From NCBI GenBank assembly GCA_049646645.1, contig JBARWF010000129.1, forward strand, positions 318 to 64,317: DNA of 64,000 nucleotides, written 5' to 3'. The notes below the pieces were generated by a model. The model saw nothing but the letters and a program-made list of their open reading frames with translations. It made no database searches and had not been told where the DNA came from. A program made the position numbers and the translations under genes. How positions within the stretch are numbered: position 1 is the first letter of the stretch; every line of letters starts with the position of its first letter. This document shows positions 2,125-34,629 of the stretch, in pieces. The stretch is from Thermomicrobiales bacterium (GTDB lineage Bacteria > Chloroflexota > Chloroflexia > Thermomicrobiales > UBA6265).

Positions 2125-3209
2125 TGTTCCGCCTGGAAAAGCGCCTGCTGCGCGGAGAGCGACTCCGGATAGGGAATCCCCATGTGCTCGTAGGCGCGCT
2201 TCGTGGCGATCCGGCCACGCGGGGTCCGCTGCAGGAATCCCAGTTGAATCAGGTAGGGCTCGTAGACATCCATGATGGTATCCGTCTCCTCGCTGGTCGC
2301 CGCGGCCAGCGTGTCGATTCCGACCGGACCACCACCGAACTTATCGATCACGGCAAAGAGCAACCGGCGATCGGTATCGTCGAGACCGAGATCGTCCACT
2401 TCCAGCAGATCGAGCGCGCTCCGGGCGATCGCGGAGGAGATCGTCACCTCACCGGAGACCTGCGCCACATCGCGCACGCGCCGCAGCAGACGGTTCGCGA
2501 TGCGCGGCGTGCCGCGGGAGCGAGCCGCCAGCGCCTCGGCCCCGCTCTGATCGATCGGGAACTGCAGGATCGAGGCGGAGCGGCGCACGATCTGCTCCAT
2601 CGCCTCCTGATCATAGTAATCGAGCCGCAACACCGCGCCGAAGCGATCGCGCAGCGGCCCCGTCAGCAACGCAAGCCGCGTCGTTGCCCCGACCAGGGTG
2701 AACTGCGGGAGATTGATCCGCATGGAACGCGCCGCCGGCCCCTTCCCGATGATGATGTCAACGGCAAAATCCTCCATCGCCGGGTAGAGCACTTCCTCGA
2801 CCACGCGGTTCAACCGGTGGATCTCGTCGACGAAGAGCACGTCGCCGGGCGAGAGGTTCGTCAGGATCGAGACGAGATCGCCCTGGCGCTCGATCGCCGG
2901 ACCTGAAGTGACCCGCAGGTTGACGCCCATCTCCGCGCCGATGATGGACGCCAGCGTCGTCTTGCCGAGCCCCGGCGGACCATAGAGGAGGACGTGATCC
3001 AGCGCCTCGCCGCGTTCGAGCGCCGCCTGGATGAAGATCCGCAGGTTGCTCTTGACCCGATCCTGCCCGATGTAATCCTCAAGGTGGCGGGGACGCAGCG
3101 ACTTGTCGGCGCCATCGTCTTCGCGCTGGCGCGCGGTGACGAGGCGAGACGCGTCGCGTGCCGCCGGGGAGGAGTCATTGGGAATGGTTCGGTCCTGCTC
3201 ACTACTCAT
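2121..3209 (-). CDS. ruvB: Holliday junction branch migration DNA helicase RuvB
   Basis: Walker [19 protein letters not shown], and a RuvB C-terminal winged helix. Start set at ATG 3209 (MSSEQD). The track ORF extends to 3785, but that part is Arg/Ser-rich with no RuvB-like sequence. Confidence 0.9.
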
Positions 3210-4357: not shown

Positions 4358-4430
4358 GCCGACCTAGCTCAGTTGGTAGAGCAGCTGTTTCGTAAACAGC
4401 AGGTCGCCGGTTCGAGTCCGGCGGTCGGCT
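4358..4430 (+). tRNA. tRNA-Thr (anticodon CGU)
   Basis: Hand-folded cloverleaf: acceptor GCCGACC/GGTCGGC, D arm GCTC-AGTTGGTA-GAGC, anticodon loop TTCGTAA, T arm GCCGG-TTCGAGT-CCGGC. 73 nt. Confidence 0.93.
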
Positions 4431-4463
4431 CCTGACACCACGTCAGGCAACGTATCCGAGAGA

Positions 4464-4549
<86 letters not shown>

Positions 4550-4629
4550 GATTGACCGCACGCTCACCAGCCAGGTGAATCATCGCGAGCCTACGCTCGC
4601 GCATCGTGCACGTTTACATCAGAATACGC

Positions 4630-4986
4630 TGACGGAAAGAAGCGATGGATGGTCGCTGGCCCGATGAGGGTCAGAGGAAAGTCCGAGCTGCACAGAGCAA
4701 GGGTGCCCGGTGAAAGCCGGGGAAGCGCGGTTCGCCGCGTTGACAGTCCAGATTGGCACGTTCCCTGAACGTGAGAGCAACAGAGACCAAACCGCTGATC
4801 GCACGAGAAGCGGCGTGAAAAGGGCAATCCTCCCCGCAGCAATCTCCGATTCGACCGCTTGCAGGCTGCTCGCCAAGGTCGGAAGTCGAGAGCCGTCACG
4901 AAGGCGACGACGTGGCCGATCCCTCCGGGGTCGAGAGAGATGACCATCACGAACAGAACTCGGCTTACACTCCCTTCTTCTCCGTC
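4630..4986 (+). ncRNA. rnpB: bacterial RNase P RNA
   Basis: CR-I GAGGAAAGTCCGAGC (about 4672-4686) and CR-V ACAGAACTCGGCTTAC (about 4953-4968). P1 is formed by GACGGAAAGAAG (4630-4641) with CTTCTT-C-TCCGTC (4974-4986). Confidence 0.9.
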
Positions 4987-4994
4987 GGATGTAT

Positions 4995-5067
4995 GGTGCC
5001 CTTAGCTCAATGGCAGAGCGCTTGTCTGTGGAACATGAGGTTACGGGTTCGAGCCCCGTAGGGCACC
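4995..5067 (+). tRNA. tRNA-His (anticodon GUG) with encoded G-1
   Basis: G-1 (4995) lies opposite C73 (5067). Acceptor GTGCCCT/AGGGCAC, anticodon loop CTGTGGA, T arm ACGGG-TTCGAGC-CCCGT. There is one T-T mismatch in the anticodon stem. Confidence 0.9.
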
Positions 5068-5094
5068 CCCACACACGATGACACCAGGTGGCAC

Positions 5095-27042: not shown

Positions 27043-29553
27043 CTACTTGACGACGAGGTTGATCAGCCGTCCGGGCACGACGACTTCCCGCACCACGGTC
27101 TTGCCCGCCAATTGCTCCTGAACGCGGGCGTTCGCCAGCGCAGCCTGCAGGAGGTCCTCCTTCGAGGCGGTGCGCGCCACGACGAGCTTCTCCCGGACCT
27201 TGCCGTTCACCTGCACCGGAATCTCGACCGTGTCTTCCACCGCGAGGGCTTCGTCGTAGACCGGCCACGATTGCTGGTGAATCGAGAACGGGTTGCCCAG
27301 CCGCGCCCACATCTCCTCCGCCACGAAGGGAGTGCTGGGGGCCATCAGCAGGGCCAGCGTCTCCGCCGCCTCGCGCCAGGCCGGCGTCTGGGCAACGGGC
27401 TGATCGCGCAGCTTCATCAGCTCGTTGGTGTACTCGATCAGCGCCGCGATCATCGTGTTGAACTGAAAATTGTCGATGTCCGCCGTCACGCGCTTGATCG
27501 TGCGGTGTGTCAACGCCCGCAGGGCCGAGACATCGCTGTCGGGCGCGCTCCCGTCCGGTGTCGCCGTGCCGAGCTCCGACACGATCTGGAACGCCCGCCG
27601 CAGGAAGCGCTCCATGCCGGTGATGCCGCGATCGTTCCACGGGCCGCCCTGCTCCCACGGTCCCAGGAACATCAGGTGAAGCCGCAGCGCATCCGCGCCA
27701 TGCGCGGCGACGAGCTCATCCGGTCCCACCTGGGTTCCCCGGCTTTTGCTCATCTTTGTGCCCTCGGCCGCCAGGATCATTCCCTGGTTCCGCAGTCGCT
27801 TGAAGGGCTCATCCTGATCGACCAGTCCGAAGTCGCGCAGCACCTTCGTGAAGAACCGCGCGTAGAGCAGGTGCAGGATGGCGTGCTCGATGCCGCCCGT
27901 GTAGAGATCGACCGGCGTCCACGCCCGCGAGGCGACCGGATCGAATGGCGCATTCTCGTCGTGCGGGCTGGTATACCGAAACCAGTACCACGACGAATCG
28001 ACGAACGTATCCATCGTGTCGGTCTCGCGGCGCGCCGGCCCACCACACGCCGGACAGGTCGTGTGAAGGAAAGACTCGTGGCTCACCAACGGGCTCTGGC
28101 CGGTCGGCGTGAACTCGGCGTCGAGCGGCAGTTCGACCGGCAGCTGGTCCTCCGGCACCGGGACCATCCCGCAGGAGTCGCAGTAGACGATGGGAATCGG
28201 CGTTCCCCAGTACCGCTGGCGGGAGATCAGCCAGTCACGCAGCCGGAAGTTGACCTCCGCCTTGCCGCGTCCTTGCTCGTCCAGCGAGGCGATGACGGTC
28301 GAGATGCTCTCTGGAACGGCCAGACCATCGAACCGCCCCGAGTTCACGATCTTGCCCGGCCCGACGTACGGCCCGGCCATCGTGGCGGGATCGAGCGTCT
28401 CCTGGTCCTCCGGCTGGATTACCACCTTGATGGGCAGGTCGAACGCGCGCGCGAAGGCAAAATCACGCTCGTCGTGCGCGGGCACCGCCATGATCGCGCC
28501 GGTCCCGTAGCTCATCAGCACGTAGTCGGCGATCCAGACCGGGATGCGCTCGTCATTGACCGGGTTGATGGCGTAGGCGCCGGTGAAGACGCCGGTCTTT
28601 GGACGAGACTCATCGGTGGACTGCCGCTCGATCTCCGTTTCGCGGCGAGCAGCATCGACGTAAGCTCCGACCTCGGCCCGCCGGTCGGCGGTCGTGATCT
28701 TCTCGACCAGCGGGTGCTCCGGCGCGAGGACCATGAAGGTCGCGCCAAAGACGGTATCCGGTCGTGTCGAGAAGACCTCCAGCTCGTCGCCGCTCTCCAG
28801 GCGGAACTGCAGCCGGGCGCCCTCGGACCGGCCGATCCAGTTCCGCTGCATGGTCTTGACGCGCTCGGGCCAATCCAGGGTTTCGAGATCGGCCAGCAAC
28901 TCCTCGGCATAGTCCGTGATCTTGAAATACCACTGTTCCAGATCGCGCTTGTACACCTCGGAGCCGCATCGCTCACAGATGTTGCCGTCGATCACCTGCT
29001 CGTTCGCGAGCACGGTCTGATCGTGCGGGCACCACCAGACCGACCCCTTCGCCTTGTAGGCCAGCCCCCGCTCCAGCATCTGCAGGAAGATCCACTGGTT
29101 CCAGCGGTAATACTCCGGGGTGCAGGTGATGATCTCCCGGGACCAGTCGATCATCGCCCCCATCAGATCGTACTGATGCCGCATGCGAGCGATGTTCTCG
29201 AAGGTCCAGGTCGCGGGATGGATGTTGTTGCGGATCGCGGCGTTTTCGGCCGGCAGCCCGAACGCGTCGAACCCCATGGGGAAGAGCACGTTGTAGCCGC
29301 GCATCCGCTGCAGCCGCGCAAAGACATCCGGTACCGAGAACGCGTACCAGTGACCGACGTGCAGCACCCCGGAGGGATAGGGATACATGGTCAGCGAAAA
29401 CCACTTCGGGTCGGGATTGCTGTCGTCGACCTTGTAGATGGCGGCTTCCTGCCACTTTGCACGCCACTTCGGTTCGATCTCCGCCGGATCATACCGGTGC
29501 GCATCGGCGGGCCGCGCACCGTCAGTTGCTAAAGTGCTTGTTGTGGCGCTCAT
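27043..29553 (-). CDS. leuS: leucine--tRNA ligase
   Basis: Start ATG 29553 (AGGAG upstream). Contains YPYPSGVLHVGH (HIGH), the CP1 editing domain and KMSKSRG. Confidence 0.95.
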   Translation of the reverse strand: MSATTSTLATDGARPADAHRYDPAEIEPKWRAKWQEAAIYKVDDSNPDPKWFSLTMYPYPSGVLHVGHWYAFSVPDVFARLQRMRGYNVLFPMGFDAFGLPAENAAIRNNIHPATWTFENIARMRHQYDLMGAMIDWSREIITCTPEYYRWNQWIFLQMLERGLAYKAKGSVWWCPHDQTVLANEQVIDGNICERCGSEVYKRDLEQWYFKITDYAEELLADLETLDWPERVKTMQRNWIGRSEGARLQFRLESGDELEVFSTRPDTVFGATFMVLAPEHPLVEKITTADRRAEVGAYVDAARRETEIERQSTDESRPKTGVFTGAYAINPVNDERIPVWIADYVLMSYGTGAIMAVPAHDERDFAFARAFDLPIKVVIQPEDQETLDPATMAGPYVGPGKIVNSGRFDGLAVPESISTVIASLDEQGRGKAEVNFRLRDWLISRQRYWGTPIPIVYCDSCGMVPVPEDQLPVELPLDAEFTPTGQSPLVSHESFLHTTCPACGGPARRETDTMDTFVDSSWYWFRYTSPHDENAPFDPVASRAWTPVDLYTGGIEHAILHLLYARFFTKVLRDFGLVDQDEPFKRLRNQGMILAAEGTKMSKSRGTQVGPDELVAAHGADALRLHLMFLGPWEQGGPWNDRGITGMERFLRRAFQIVSELGTATPDGSAPDSDVSALRALTHRTIKRVTADIDNFQFNTMIAALIEYTNELMKLRDQPVAQTPAWREAAETLALLMAPSTPFVAEEMWARLGNPFSIHQQSWPVYDEALAVEDTVEIPVQVNGKVREKLVVARTASKEDLLQAALANARVQEQLAGKTVVREVVVPGRLINLVVK

Positions 29554-29575
29554 GGTCTCTCCTTCATGGACGTGG

Positions 29576-29610
29576 TGATTTCGCCGGAGCGTTGAGAAAT
29601 CGAATCTCAC
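29576..29610 (+). repeat. degenerate copy of the dispersed repeat, inside the leuS 5' UTR
   Basis: GTGATTTCGCCGGAGCGTTGAGAAATCGAATCTC compared with consensus GTCATTTCGAGCGCAGTCGAGAAATCTC. Confidence 0.45.
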
Positions 29611-29641
29611 ATCTCTGAAAAACAAAAAGCGAGCAGACAAG

Positions 29642-30004
29642 AAAAACGCCTCCATCCCTTATCAGGGACGAAAGGCGCTCTTGCATGCTCGCTTCCGCGG
29701 TACCACCCTGCTTGACCAGCAAGGCTCTCGCTTGCGATGGCTCGGGTGGAGCTGAGGGGACTCGAACCCCTGACCCCCACACTGCCAGTGTGGTGCTCTC
29801 CCAGCTGAGCTACAGCCCCAAGTACATCGCCTGCGAGGAGCCGTGATTGGCCCGCTCGTCTCTGCCCGATAACGGTGGCAACCGACACTGGCTACACAAG
29901 CGCTTCACCAGCATGGCTCACGGGCGAGTTCGATCCGACCAGGACACCTTCCACCAACCGGTGTCTCGCTGCGTTCGCGGATCTACTACTCCCGATCAAC
30001 GCCC
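29642..30004 (-). promoter_or_regulatory. T-box leader (Leu specifier CUC) controlling leuS, with a terminator/antiterminator
   Basis: Minus-strand elements: Stem I (30003-29915) with AGUA box 29990-29984, specifier GAA-CUC-G (CUC at 29928-29926) and distal hairpin GACACC-GGUUGGUGGAA-GGUGUC. Stem IIA/B plus F-box CCGUUA (29884-29863). T-box core AAGCAGGGUGGUACCGCGG (29713-29695). Terminator 29678-29647 plus U5 (29646-29642). Confidence 0.85.
29747..29819 (-). tRNA. tRNA-Ala (anticodon GGC), nested in the leuS T-box leader
   Basis: GGGGCTG-TA-GCTC-AGCTGGGA-GAGC-A-CCACA-CTGGCAG-TGTGG-GGGTC-AGGGG-TTCGAGT-CCCCT-CAGCTCC-A. The G3:U70 identity pair is present. CCA is not encoded (followed by CCC). 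Confidence 0.95.
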
Positions 30005-30050
30005 GGATCCGGATTGGATCCTTGGGTTTCTCGGCGCACCCGACCCGAAG

Positions 30051-30075
30051 GTCATTTCGTGCGACCTCGGTGATT
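30051..30075 (+). repeat. partial copy of the dispersed repeat at the 5' edge of the leuS leader
   Basis: GTCATTTCGTGCGACCTCGG has one mismatch to the 13-nt core. Confidence 0.45.
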
Positions 30076-30081
30076 ATAGCC
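30073..30081 (-). promoter_or_regulatory. candidate -10 element of the leuS leader promoter
   Basis: The minus strand reads GGCTATAAT. No convincing -35 element was found. Confidence 0.4.
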
Positions 30082-30240
30082 TCCTGCCTGCAAAAGTGCC
30101 AGTACAGTCGAGCACTATTGGATACGCCGCCATTGTACCGGGGTCCACTGACCGGCACGCGTCCCCGCCGATCGCGTACAAAACCCGGTAAGGACGTTGA
30201 CGGTCGACAGTTCATCCACTTGGAACGACAGGACGCATAC

Positions 30241-30927
30241 ATGACACAACCCGACAGCCAACTTGATGATGCGAACACGGCGGACTCCTCAGCCGCTGCG
30301 CTCTCCACGACGATCGACGGGATCATCGGTCGATTTGAGTCGGTGAACGCGGCTCGCGACCATGCGATCACGACGGGCCGCCAGGTGATCCGCCTTGCCG
30401 CCAACACGGTCCGCGCGCTCCACCGGGGCGATCGCGTTTCGGCGGCCACGCTGCTTGACGAGGCGAGCGTCCTGCTCGCCGAGATTCGCGCCACAACTGC
30501 GCCATACCCCGCGCTCTATTGGGCCGGATACGTGCAGGATGCGATGAAGGAGTATGCGGAGGCGGCCATCACCGCGAACCTCCTTGCAGACCGGCTGCTG
30601 CCCTCTCCGGACGCGCTCAAGGTGGAGGACGCCGCCTGGCTGAACGCCCTCGCCGAAGCCGGGAGCGAGCTACGCCGGGCGGTACTCGATCGCCTCCGGG
30701 CCGACCAGCACCAGGAGGGCGAGCGCCTGCTGACGCGGATGGATGAGATCTACGCCGTGCTCGTGACCGTCGACTTCCCGGACGCGATCACGGGAGGATT
30801 GCGCCGGACCACGGACCAGTTTCGCGCAGTGCTTGAGCGCACACGGGGCGATGTAACGGTCGCCGTTCGCCAGCACCGGCTCGAACTGGCGTTGCGATCC
30901 GTCGATGAGCGACTGCGCTCGAAATGA
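30241..30927 (+). CDS. translin family protein (translin/TRAX-like)
   Basis: Start ATG 30241 within track ORF 29875..30927. VEDAAWLNALAEAGSELRRAVLDRLRAD and LRRTTDQFRAVLERTRGDV align by eye with the translin blocks EDYLSGVLILASELSRL and LRKRYDGLKYDVKKVE. Confidence 0.6.
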   Translation: MTQPDSQLDDANTADSSAAALSTTIDGIIGRFESVNAARDHAITTGRQVIRLAANTVRALHRGDRVSAATLLDEASVLLAEIRATTAPYPALYWAGYVQDAMKEYAEAAITANLLADRLLPSPDALKVEDAAWLNALAEAGSELRRAVLDRLRADQHQEGERLLTRMDEIYAVLVTVDFPDAITGGLRRTTDQFRAVLERTRGDVTVAVRQHRLELALRSVDERLRSK

Positions 30928-33435: not shown

Positions 33436-34629
33436 ATGCGCCTCTTCAATACGCAATCGGCAGCCGTCGAGGATTTCACGCCGGTCGATGGGCACGTCGG
33501 CATCTACGTGTGCGGGGTCACGCCATACGATACGACCCACGCGGGACATGCCTTCACGTACGTGATCTACGACGTGCTCATCCGCTACCTGCGGTATCAG
33601 GGACTGAAGGTCACCTACGTCCAGAACGTCACCGATATCGATGACGACATCCTGCGCAAGTCAAAAGAACTCGGCATGGACTGGCAAGAGCTTGGCAAGC
33701 AGGAGACCGCGAAATTTCGCAAGGACATGCTCGATCTCAACGCGCTCGATCCCGACCACTATGTTGCGGCGACCGATCACATCGCGGACGTCGTCTCCCT
33801 GACCGCGAAGCTGGTGGATCTTGGTCTTGCCTATGAATCGCAGGGCAGCGTCTATTACTCGGTGGCCAAGGATCCCGATTTCGGCAAGCTGAGCCATCTC
33901 GCGCCGGAGGAGATGCTGCCGATCGCGAACGAGCGAGGCAACTTCCCGGACGATCCGAAGAAGGCCGACCCCATCGATTTCATCCTCTGGCAAGCAGCCG
34001 CACCCGGCGAGCCGACTTGGGAGTCACCGTGGGGCCCGGGACGGCCGGGCTGGCATATCGAGTGCAGCGCGATGTCGATGCGGTATCTCGGCCCGCAGAT
34101 CGACATTCACGGCGGCGGCGCTGACCTCATCTTCCCGCATCATGAATGCGAGATCGCGCAGTCCGAACCGGCGACCGGGGTGAAGCCCTTCGTGCGCTAT
34201 TGGGTGCATGCCGCGATGGTCGGATACCAGGGTGAGAAGATGTCGAAGTCGCTCGGTAATCTCGTCAAGGTCTCGGATGTCCTCGAAACGCACCGTGGCG
34301 ACGCCCTCCGCCTCTACCTGCTCTCCAATCACTACCGCACGCCATGGGAGTTCGAGGATGACGCGCTGGAGACGTGGGCAGACGTGGCGGATTCGCTACA
34401 GGAAGCTGTGGACGGCACCGTCTCCGGATTCGGGGACCTGCTCGATCTCGAACCGCACCGGCGGCGATTCTTCGCAGCGCTGGACAATGATCTCGACACG
34501 CCGACCGCGATCGCCGTCCTGCAGGAGATCGCCCAGGCCATCCTCGAAGCTCCCGAGGACGAGGATGTGCGCGAAGCCCAGACGTTGTTGCGCGAACTGG
34601 GGGACATTCTCGGTCTGACGTTCAACTAA
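33436..34629 (+). CDS. class-I CysRS-family ligase lacking the C-terminal anticodon-binding domain (cysteine--tRNA ligase or MshC-like ligase)
   Basis: 397 aa with YVCGVTPYDTTHAGHAFTY, YVQNVTDIDDD, GRPGWHIECSAM, GGGADLIFPHHECEIAQSE and KMSKSLGN. It ends about 110 aa after KMSKS. Confidence 0.8.
   Translation: MRLFNTQSAAVEDFTPVDGHVGIYVCGVTPYDTTHAGHAFTYVIYDVLIRYLRYQGLKVTYVQNVTDIDDDILRKSKELGMDWQELGKQETAKFRKDMLDLNALDPDHYVAATDHIADVVSLTAKLVDLGLAYESQGSVYYSVAKDPDFGKLSHLAPEEMLPIANERGNFPDDPKKADPIDFILWQAAAPGEPTWESPWGPGRPGWHIECSAMSMRYLGPQIDIHGGGADLIFPHHECEIAQSEPATGVKPFVRYWVHAAMVGYQGEKMSKSLGNLVKVSDVLETHRGDALRLYLLSNHYRTPWEFEDDALETWADVADSLQEAVDGTVSGFGDLLDLEPHRRRFFAALDNDLDTPTAIAVLQEIAQAILEAPEDEDVREAQTLLRELGDILGLTFN

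Follow-up and report, generated by a model that had tools for sequence, protein, structure and literature searches.

Can a riboswitch whose ligand is one tRNA carry the gene of another within its own sensing domain, and what becomes of its regulation if the guest is cut out? The question is raised by the leader of leuS, the gene for leucyl-tRNA synthetase (LeuRS), on the minus strand of a 64-kb stretch of DNA from a Thermomicrobiales (Chloroflexota) metagenome-assembled genome (MAG); this whole stretch is called the window below. A first-pass annotation had placed a complete tRNA-Ala(GGC) gene at the tip of Stem III of an otherwise intact T-box upstream of leuS, and this placement is borne out both by the T-box covariance model and by at least 122 nested cases. 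By their respective features, the host is a T-box leader and the guest a tRNA-Ala gene; the new part is the nesting of one in the other. We think it probable that a single transcript serves both as a Leu-sensing attenuator for leuS and as a constitutive precursor of tRNA-Ala(GGC).

Anatomy of the leuS leader

In a permissive local search, the Rfam T-box model RF00230 aligns over its full length to the leader at 90.3 bits (E 2.7e-20), with a single 127-nt insertion that lies in the Stem III loop and has the tRNA inside it (Table 1). All the T-box modules that the first-pass annotation had listed upstream of leuS are present where it had put them, as are the tRNA gene and the competing terminator hairpin with its run of five U. 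It had also named the failure of a covariance model on Stem I as an outcome that would speak against its proposal; the model scores this region as T-box (model 1-104, posterior mostly '*'), and the K-turn/GA motif, specifier loop, AG bulge and distal loop are all there. The K-turn base of Stem I is formed by GGC-GUUGAU-CGGG with CCCG-UGA-GCC, an AGUAGUA box lies at 29984-29990, and the distal hairpin GACACC-GGUUGGUGGAA-GGUGUC presents GGUUGGUGGAA as its loop. The specifier loop reads GAA-CUC-G (29925-29931), with the codon followed by a purine, and its Leu specifier matches the downstream gene. In Stem IIA/B, CGGUUGCCACCGUUA aligns to the RF00230 consensus, and the pseudoknot between the UGCC loop and GGCA is read from the sequence, its pairing lying outside the covariance model. 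The antiterminator stretch AGGGUGGUACCGCGG is likewise aligned to the model and has the UGGN bulge. The terminator 5' strand CUUUCGUCCCU overlaps the antiterminator 3' strand, so that the two structures compete. The UGGU bulge of T-boxes pairs with the A73-CCA end of the uncharged tRNA.

The 15-bp closing helix around the tRNA and its linkers of 5 and 7 nt are as earlier claimed, and they come out of an unconstrained minimum free energy (MFE) fold of the whole leader (z = -3.5), along with the terminator and a multiloop shaped like a tRNA. Beneath the closing helix, and beyond what had been listed before, lies a canonical Stem III base, GAGCG-GGCCA...UGGUC-AA; the signature of the T-box discriminator is RRRNG-Stem III-AA (PMC7778990).

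Upstream of Stem I, the promoter of Table 1 is the only sigma-70-like site on the minus strand from 29450 to 30350 (shuffle mean 0.2). No sigma-70-like promoter and no terminator-like site is found between Stem I and the tRNA in the window, and neither a promoter-like site (in a sigma-70-type scan) nor a terminator-like site was seen on the minus strand between the pseudoknot and the T-box core, the interval in which the first-pass annotation had held that a start or a terminator would argue against it.

Table 1. Features of the leuS leader and gene in the window, in the order of transcription
Feature	Position	Strand	Basis and remarks
Sigma-70-like promoter CTGGCA, 18-nt spacer, TATAAT	30073-30102	-	10/12 matches; ~65 nt upstream of Stem I
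Full T-box leader, including the 127-nt insertion	29661-30008	-	RF00230 model 1-219
Stem I	29915-30003	-	Sequence and Rfam structure line
Specifier codon CUC (Leu)	29926-29928	-	Sequence, coordinates recomputed
Stem II	29887-29914	-	RF00230 alignment, model ~106-133
Stem IIA/B hairpin CGGU-UGCC-ACCG, F-box CCGUUA and GGCA	29863-29884	-	Sequence and RF00230
RRRNG motif GAGCG, immediately 5' of Stem III	29853-29857	-	Motif definition of PMC7778990
Stem III base, 5' strand GGCCA	29848-29852	-	RF00230 alignment, MFE
Closing helix (Stem III extension), 5' strand GGCUCCUCGCAGGCGAUG	29825-29842	-	MFE; flank duplex z = -4.3 versus shuffles
5' linker UACUU, U at -1 of the tRNA	29820-29824	-	Sequence
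tRNA-Ala(GGC), 73 nt, G3:U70, A73	29747-29819	-	ARAGORN; Rfam tRNA model 65.8 bits
3' linker CCCGAGC	29740-29746	-	Sequence
Closing helix, 3' strand CAUCGCAAGCGAGAGCC	29723-29739	-	MFE; flank duplex
Stem III base, 3' strand UGGUC, then conserved AA (29712-29713)	29714-29718	-	RF00230 alignment
T-box core AAGCAGGGUGGUACCGCGG	29695-29713	-	UGGU bulge; RF00230 alignment
Terminator hairpin and U run	29642-29679	-	11-bp stem and T5, MFE
leuS (LeuRS, 836 aa)	27043-29553	-	Translation; Pfam domains for editing, catalysis and anticodon binding; 100% identity to the LeuRS of a Thermomicrobiales MAG

Recurrence of the nested arrangement

Relatives were surveyed in the 80 GTDB species representatives whose LeuRS is most similar, and a tRNA-Ala(GGC) on the leuS strand is common in this set. 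The linkage of this tRNA to leuS is wider than the nesting and comes in adjacent, nested and T-box-less forms. It is nested, with a full-length T-box match spanning the tRNA, in L010, L021, L025, L026 and L028 (up to 125.2 bits), adjacent in L003, L005, L007, L008, L011 and L023, where 11-51 nt separate the end of the tRNA from a contiguous T-box, and placed before leuS with no T-box detectable at E <= 0.001 in L029, L034, L054 and L057. Metagenome contigs were scanned for any T-loop GGTTCGANTCC followed by 25-55 nt of anything and then the core GGTGGTACCGCG, a pattern specific to neither tRNA identity nor gene; the motifs had to be exact, so that other tRNA/T-box pairings with inexact motifs could be missed and the counts are lower bounds. 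The scan returned at least 120 loci, and all 116 of those listed with an intact tRNA carry tRNA-Ala(GGC). Two further Thermomicrobiales-like genomes with the nesting were reached via a protein search. The nested composite is thus present in at least 122 cases, in both Chloroflexota and Bacillota, and chance is excluded because these cases are independent and the tRNA is always the same.

As for the regulated gene, LeuRS is encoded downstream in 96 of the 122 nested cases listed, the other 26 contigs ending within 1.6 kb of the core. It comes directly next in 66 of the 96 and after a gene for a GNAT acetyltransferase or a class IV (IlvE-type) aminotransferase in the remaining 30. In a sample of 14 metagenome loci, a full-length T-box match spans the tRNA in 13, with the gathering score exceeded in four; nested relatives score 104.7-125.2 bits against RF00230, and L141, a near-identical relative of the window, 91.7 bits. 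A comparison of the upstream regions of leuS in relatives had been proposed as a check by the first-pass annotation, and its outcome is that the insert recurs and that Stem III covaries around it.

The guest is kept as a tRNA

The nested gene has a canonical cloverleaf in which the conserved residues of the D-loop and T-loop are present. Over the 46 distinct nested tRNA sequences, 99.9% of the cloverleaf cells hold standard pairs, and compensatory changes are seen at 14 of the 21 cloverleaf pairs, including all five of the anticodon stem. G3:U70 and the anticodon loop U-GGC-A are invariant in the same set, in which the neighboring pairs covary, and the AlaRS identity set of G3:U70 and A73 is complete in 122 of the 122 nested copies listed. 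At -1, U accounts for 74% and purines for 4%, the nearby background having 17% U (p ~1e-39). A U at this position is a known substrate preference of bacterial RNase P, and the bias supports the view that selection acts on the nested element as a substrate of this enzyme. The CCA end is encoded in 80 of the 122 copies listed and lacking in 42; in the window it is unencoded, with CCC following the tRNA, as is also the case for two of the four other tRNAs there. Taken as a family of sequences, the nested tRNA is selected as a decodable, AlaRS-chargeable and RNase P-cleavable molecule.

These same features bear on the idea that the tRNA-shaped element is never released and acts in cis as a structural or protein-binding module, which might, for instance, clamp the fold of Stem III, serve the Stem I platform as a decoy, or be bound by AlaRS or EF-Tu. 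An anticodon loop that does not vary and a G3:U70 that is never Watson-Crick in any of the 46 sequences indicate decoding and charging, both of which need release, and the U(-1) bias indicates cleavage by RNase P. The idea would draw on the location of the element in a functionally important domain and on the complementarity of A73 and, in the 80 CCA-encoding copies, CCA to the UGGU bulge; against this, the other 42 copies listed have no CCA, the anticodon GGC cannot pair with CUC, and an internal ACCA with a 3' extension should be sterically rejected by the discriminator (PMC7778990). We regard such a module as very improbable.

Particular contacts between guest and host were considered and set aside. 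Pairing in cis of A73-CCA with the UGGU bulge was ruled out on the grounds of the copies without CCA and of the expected exclusion of a 3'-extended end. The anticodon GGC might have paired with the GCC that follows the specifier (GAA-CUC-GCC); this GCC belongs to the Stem I helix and is unconserved, being GUU in L026 and ACC in L010.

A side effect of the acceptor end concerns annotation. Nested copies that encode CCA (e.g., 2828-2902 of L025 and 1284-1359 of L201) score as tmRNA (RF00023) below threshold, at ~38-45 bits against a gathering score of 47, and are reported as such in place of the tRNA. We take these calls to be an artefact of clan competition, because tmRNA has a tRNA-Ala-like acceptor end.

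The host is kept as a T-box

A specifier loop of the form GAA-CUC-R is present in 100 of the 111 nested loci with enough upstream sequence, and most of the others have CUC in a variant loop. The codon is thus kept in ~107 of the 111, across two phyla, which argues that Stem I is still under selection. On the 3' side, AA follows Stem III in all 107 non-redundant loci. In 81 of these, RRRNG is followed by a 5-mer that pairs with the five nucleotides before AA, and 30 different helix sequences are represented (e.g., GACCG/CGGUC, GUCGG/CCGGC, GAGAG/CUCUC, GGUAA/UUACC and GGCCA/UGGUC); a control in which the partners were swapped gave a mean of 6.9 and a maximum of 13. Going by these pairings, Stem III covaries around the nested tRNA. 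With trimmed flanks, 47% of loci have flank duplexes that outdo 95% of shuffles. An RNAduplex comparison of untrimmed flanks was dropped, as it was inflated by partly spurious pairing (GUGG with the CCA tail, and conserved motifs) and had a weak partner-swap control; the trimmed-flank shuffles and the anchored RRRNG/AA test replaced it.

The commonest layout in the family is a 5-bp Stem III with linkers of ~5 nt. In the clade of the window, the arm is elaborated to 24 bp (~-37 kcal/mol), an elaboration common to the nearest relatives: it is nearly identical in L141 and differs in sequence yet is still paired in L139, L086, L154 and L110. The first-pass annotation had held that relatives in which the tRNA lies outside a contiguous leader and no closing helix is conserved would speak against it. 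Relatives with the tRNA outside do exist, in the six adjacent loci, but the nested form with a conserved closing stem stands in the window clade and in many other lineages.

Several observations weigh against reading the leader as both a working attenuator and a tRNA precursor. At 90.3 bits, the T-box of the window is 2.7 bits short of the Rfam gathering score of 93, the 127-nt insertion being penalized, and it went unreported in a whole-window Rfam search at the gathering threshold. The promoter scan covered sigma-70-type sites only, leaving an unconventional internal promoter outside its reach, and a tRNA search found no gene for tRNA-Leu(GAG) in the 64-kb window. In the wider family, the strict anchored Stem III test is failed by 26 of 107 loci, no run of at least four T lies near the core in 40 of 115, and Stem I is reduced or missing in a few members (L100, L162 and L198). 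The loci without a T run may work differently, for example translationally, or may be decaying.

The members with a reduced Stem I are degenerate or minimal forms of varied build. In L198 (oriented minus, 2729-3019), the order is promoter, a tRNA-Ala(CGC) in the place of Stem I, Stem II/IIA-B, the nested tRNA(GGC) and the core. The promoter of L162 is only ~70 nt upstream of the nested tRNA, so that Stem I must be missing or tiny. L100 has a Stem I without the distal platform, and the 3' strand of its Stem III appears to use the tRNA's own CCA.

It could be asked from such cases whether the 5' half, from Stem I to the pseudoknot, is an uncoupled relic, with the tRNA running from its own promoter in a dying T-box and leuS freed of tRNA-Leu. 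The full-length alignment to the model, the scores of up to 125 bits in nested relatives, the CUC specifier held across two phyla and the covarying Stem III all count against this, as does the position of the only sigma-70-like promoter, directly upstream of Stem I, with no promoter-like site from there to the tRNA. Its best arguments are the score of the window just under the gathering threshold, the lost or shortened Stem I of L100, L162 and L198, and the four loci in which tRNA-Ala(GGC) precedes leuS without any T-box. The relic reading is largely contradicted already, and we would give it very little credence.

A probable dual role of the leader

The anatomy of the leader and its conservation, the tRNA-type selection, the RNase P-type signature at -1 and the lack of an internal sigma-70-like promoter are observed; we infer from them that the T-box still switches, that the tRNA is processed and that processing follows the regulatory decision. 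In the scheme that we favor, the transcript would start at the promoter near 30073-30102, upstream of Stem I; further promoters directly upstream of Stem I were recognized by eye in L028 and L034-type loci. The tRNA replaces the apical loop of Stem III, from where it would point away from the elements that grip tRNA-Leu. All else is retained: both Stem I and Stem II, the pseudoknot, the base of Stem III with the purines on its flanks, and the antiterminator. The functional contacts of Stem III are made by its base and flanking purines (PMC7778990, PMC9177973), and its apex is a plausible site for a large insert. LeuRS would be made only when uncharged tRNA-Leu(GAG) stabilizes the antiterminator, the decision being taken co-transcriptionally. 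As the tRNA lies upstream of the terminator, every initiated transcript should yield it, whether terminated or read through. RNase P would cut its 5' end after the termination decision, and the 3' end would be made by RNase Z or exonucleases together with the CCA-adding enzyme, which should be needed in the window because CCA is not encoded. Release of the tRNA would split the spent leader in two, and the abundant, mostly terminated leader transcripts could double as an expression cassette for a housekeeping tRNA.

A rival reading, which we hold to be possible but distinctly less likely, gives the excision itself a regulatory part. Cleavage by RNase P and RNase Z might leave a two-piece riboswitch, assembled in trans and held together by Stem III, or might create a new 5' end of the leuS mRNA that starts with the antiterminator/terminator hairpin and sets the stability of the mRNA. 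In both versions, the amount of LeuRS made would depend on the tRNA-processing capacity or the tRNA-Ala supply. The nested tRNA would then be a working part of the regulator, and LeuRS synthesis would integrate tRNA-Leu charging, tRNA-maturation capacity and the supply of tRNA-Ala; again, we consider this doubtful. Were it true, a composite riboswitch-plus-tRNA unit would predate the divergence of its carrier lineages in Chloroflexota and Bacillota, or its exchange between them, and would have been conserved ever since. The first-pass annotation had suggested that the closing helix might hold the halves together. This is plausible in the window clade, where the 24-bp arm could do so after cleavage, and unlikely family-wide, where the commonest Stem III of 5 bp with ~5-nt linkers is too weak to join two RNAs. 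The position of the tRNA inside the discriminator domain is strictly conserved and its identity never changes, as might be expected of a regulatory part; the constant choice of tRNA is equally well explained by common descent. Furthermore, the tRNA-leuS linkage is kept where the tRNA is upstream of the T-box or where there is no T-box, which means that nesting is not required for co-expression.

A parallel to regulatory excision is offered by the thrS T-box leader of Bacillus subtilis, cleavage of which stabilizes the read-through mRNA. As would be the case here, that leader is cut upstream of the terminator and the read-through mRNA begins with a stable hairpin. In thrS, a general RNase cuts where the RNA is unstructured, whereas the cuts predicted here would be made by the enzymes of tRNA maturation and would release a functional tRNA.

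Origin of the nesting

In the adjacent form, the 11-51 nt between the tRNA and the T-box leave no room for a promoter, which makes co-transcription with the leuS leader the general rule; it looks like an older trait than the nesting. The linkage also outlives the riboswitch, as the T-box-less loci keep it. In these (L029, L034, which is from a Desulforudis MAG, L054 and L057), leuS is immediately preceded by a tRNA-Ala(GGC) of the same strand, which has a promoter to itself and is followed by a hairpin.

On a neighbor-joining tree of LeuRS, which is crude and drawn from a sample biased toward nested loci, the nested state is scattered over Bacillota-like and Chloroflexota-like clades and takes 19 Fitch changes. 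A single clean origin of the nesting is unsupported by this tree. The guest is always the same tRNA, which makes repeated invention less likely than an ancient origin followed by losses, by transfer of the cassette, or by both.

Relation to known systems

The first-pass annotation knew of no T-box with an embedded tRNA gene, and a full-text literature search, which had several classic T-box surveys outside its reach, found no description of one; there is some chance, and not a large one, that the nesting has already been noted somewhere. Canonical transcriptional T-boxes (RF00230; tyrS, glyQS and leuS of B. subtilis) have the same modules in the usual order, with the aminoacyl-tRNA synthetase gene downstream. 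The loop of their Stem III is a few nucleotides long, in contrast to the whole 73-nt tRNA gene of another amino-acid specificity found here. To this the window clade adds the 15-bp helical extension, and its leader would also be a tRNA precursor, neither of which is a feature of the canonical forms.

A near precedent within T-boxes is stem Sa of the staphylococcal glyS leaders, likewise a conserved, clade-restricted insertion in the 3' sensing half that leaves the core mechanism intact (PMC9177973). Stem Sa, a hairpin of 42 nt, belongs to the terminator/antiterminator domain and has no function outside the leader (PMC9177973), whereas the insert described here lies within Stem III and is a gene product in its own right. 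Among other structured RNAs, GOLLD likewise has a tRNA gene inside a large non-coding RNA and poses the same question of excision (PMC12990946). GOLLD is not a riboswitch, and its embedded tRNA varies and sits in a single-stranded junction (PMC12990946); here the host RNA itself senses a tRNA, and its guest, invariably tRNA-Ala(GGC), is held in a defined helix. Neither of the Rfam searches of the region gave a GOLLD match, and the likeness is one of analogy only.

The adjacent loci L003, L005, L007, L008, L011 and L023 resemble operons of the tufB type, to which they add a T-box in between. In the thrU-tyrU-glyT-thrT-tufB operon of Escherichia coli, tRNAs are transcribed from one promoter with the mRNA of a translation factor, from which RNase P and 3' processing free them. 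Such tRNAs lie outside any regulatory fold, whereas in the nested leaders the tRNA is within the fold and upstream of the decision point.

Several points of wider interest follow. A riboswitch that has a tRNA as its ligand hosts a different functional tRNA gene in its own sensing domain, and many lineages, in no fewer than two phyla, have kept this nesting, with neither the guest tRNA nor the regulated gene differing among them. The apex of Stem III accepts a structured insert of 75-125 nt, which is of use to structural work on T-boxes and to their engineering. The numerous leader transcripts that end prematurely need not be wasted. The nested leaders also amount to a natural experiment on whether the Stem I and discriminator halves must stay covalently joined, one that sets the speed of tRNA processing against the co-transcriptional decision. 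Lying just under the Rfam cut-off, such leaders are probably under-counted in riboswitch surveys.

Genes around the composite and other features of the window

In a large sub-lineage (L091, L131, L143, L150 and ~25 other metagenome loci, as well as L010), the gene for a GNAT acetyltransferase (~190 aa; Pfam Acetyltransf_1, E 1.4e-16) stands between the nested leader and leuS, its open reading frame lying ~50-100 nt after the core; by this position, it would be under the control of the Leu T-box. In L083, L136, L145, L160, L167 and L198, the first gene after the leader is for an IlvE-like class IV aminotransferase (Pfam Aminotran_4, E 8e-54), and leuS is ~1 kb further downstream. About 75 nt upstream of the nested tRNA, L145 (oriented minus) has ACA-GUG-G where its close relative L165 has ACA-CUC-G. 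The specifier may thus have switched from Leu to Val in the leader of an IlvE-like gene, in this single sequence with a reduced-looking Stem I.

A second alanine tRNA, tRNA-Ala(CGC), often lies just upstream of Stem I, giving the layout tRNA-Ala(CGC), Stem I-II, tRNA-Ala(GGC), core (L028, L081, L083, L095, L099, L103, L108, L126, L133, L136, L161, L167, L168, L175 and L197). The adjacent-type loci have instead tRNA-Ala(CGC), tRNA-Ala(GGC) and then the whole T-box.

Turning to the window itself, two long mechanical open reading frames, 29875-30927 (+) and 29607-29888 (-), overlap the leader and the tRNA and are most likely artefacts of the high G+C content (63%). The real divergent gene is probably the open reading frame that starts near the ATG at 30241 (+) and encodes 228 aa with no Pfam match. 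About 4 kb from leuS, 33436-34629 (+) encodes a 397-aa class I protein of the CysRS type (tRNA-synt_1e and DALR_2), short for a CysRS; a paralogue with cysteine ligase activity, such as MshC, is one possibility, and no T-box was detected in front of this gene. The RNA of RNase P is itself encoded in the window, by a class A rnpB at 4637-4983 (+) that scores 107.8 bits, just above the gathering score of 100. It is part of a tRNA cluster at 4358-5071 (+), in the order tRNA-Thr(CGU), tRNA-Leu(CAG), rnpB and tRNA-His(GUG), with rnpB ending ~12 nt before tRNA-His. From this layout, the RNase P RNA may share a transcript with tRNAs that are its substrates, and it may itself make the cut that defines its 3' end.

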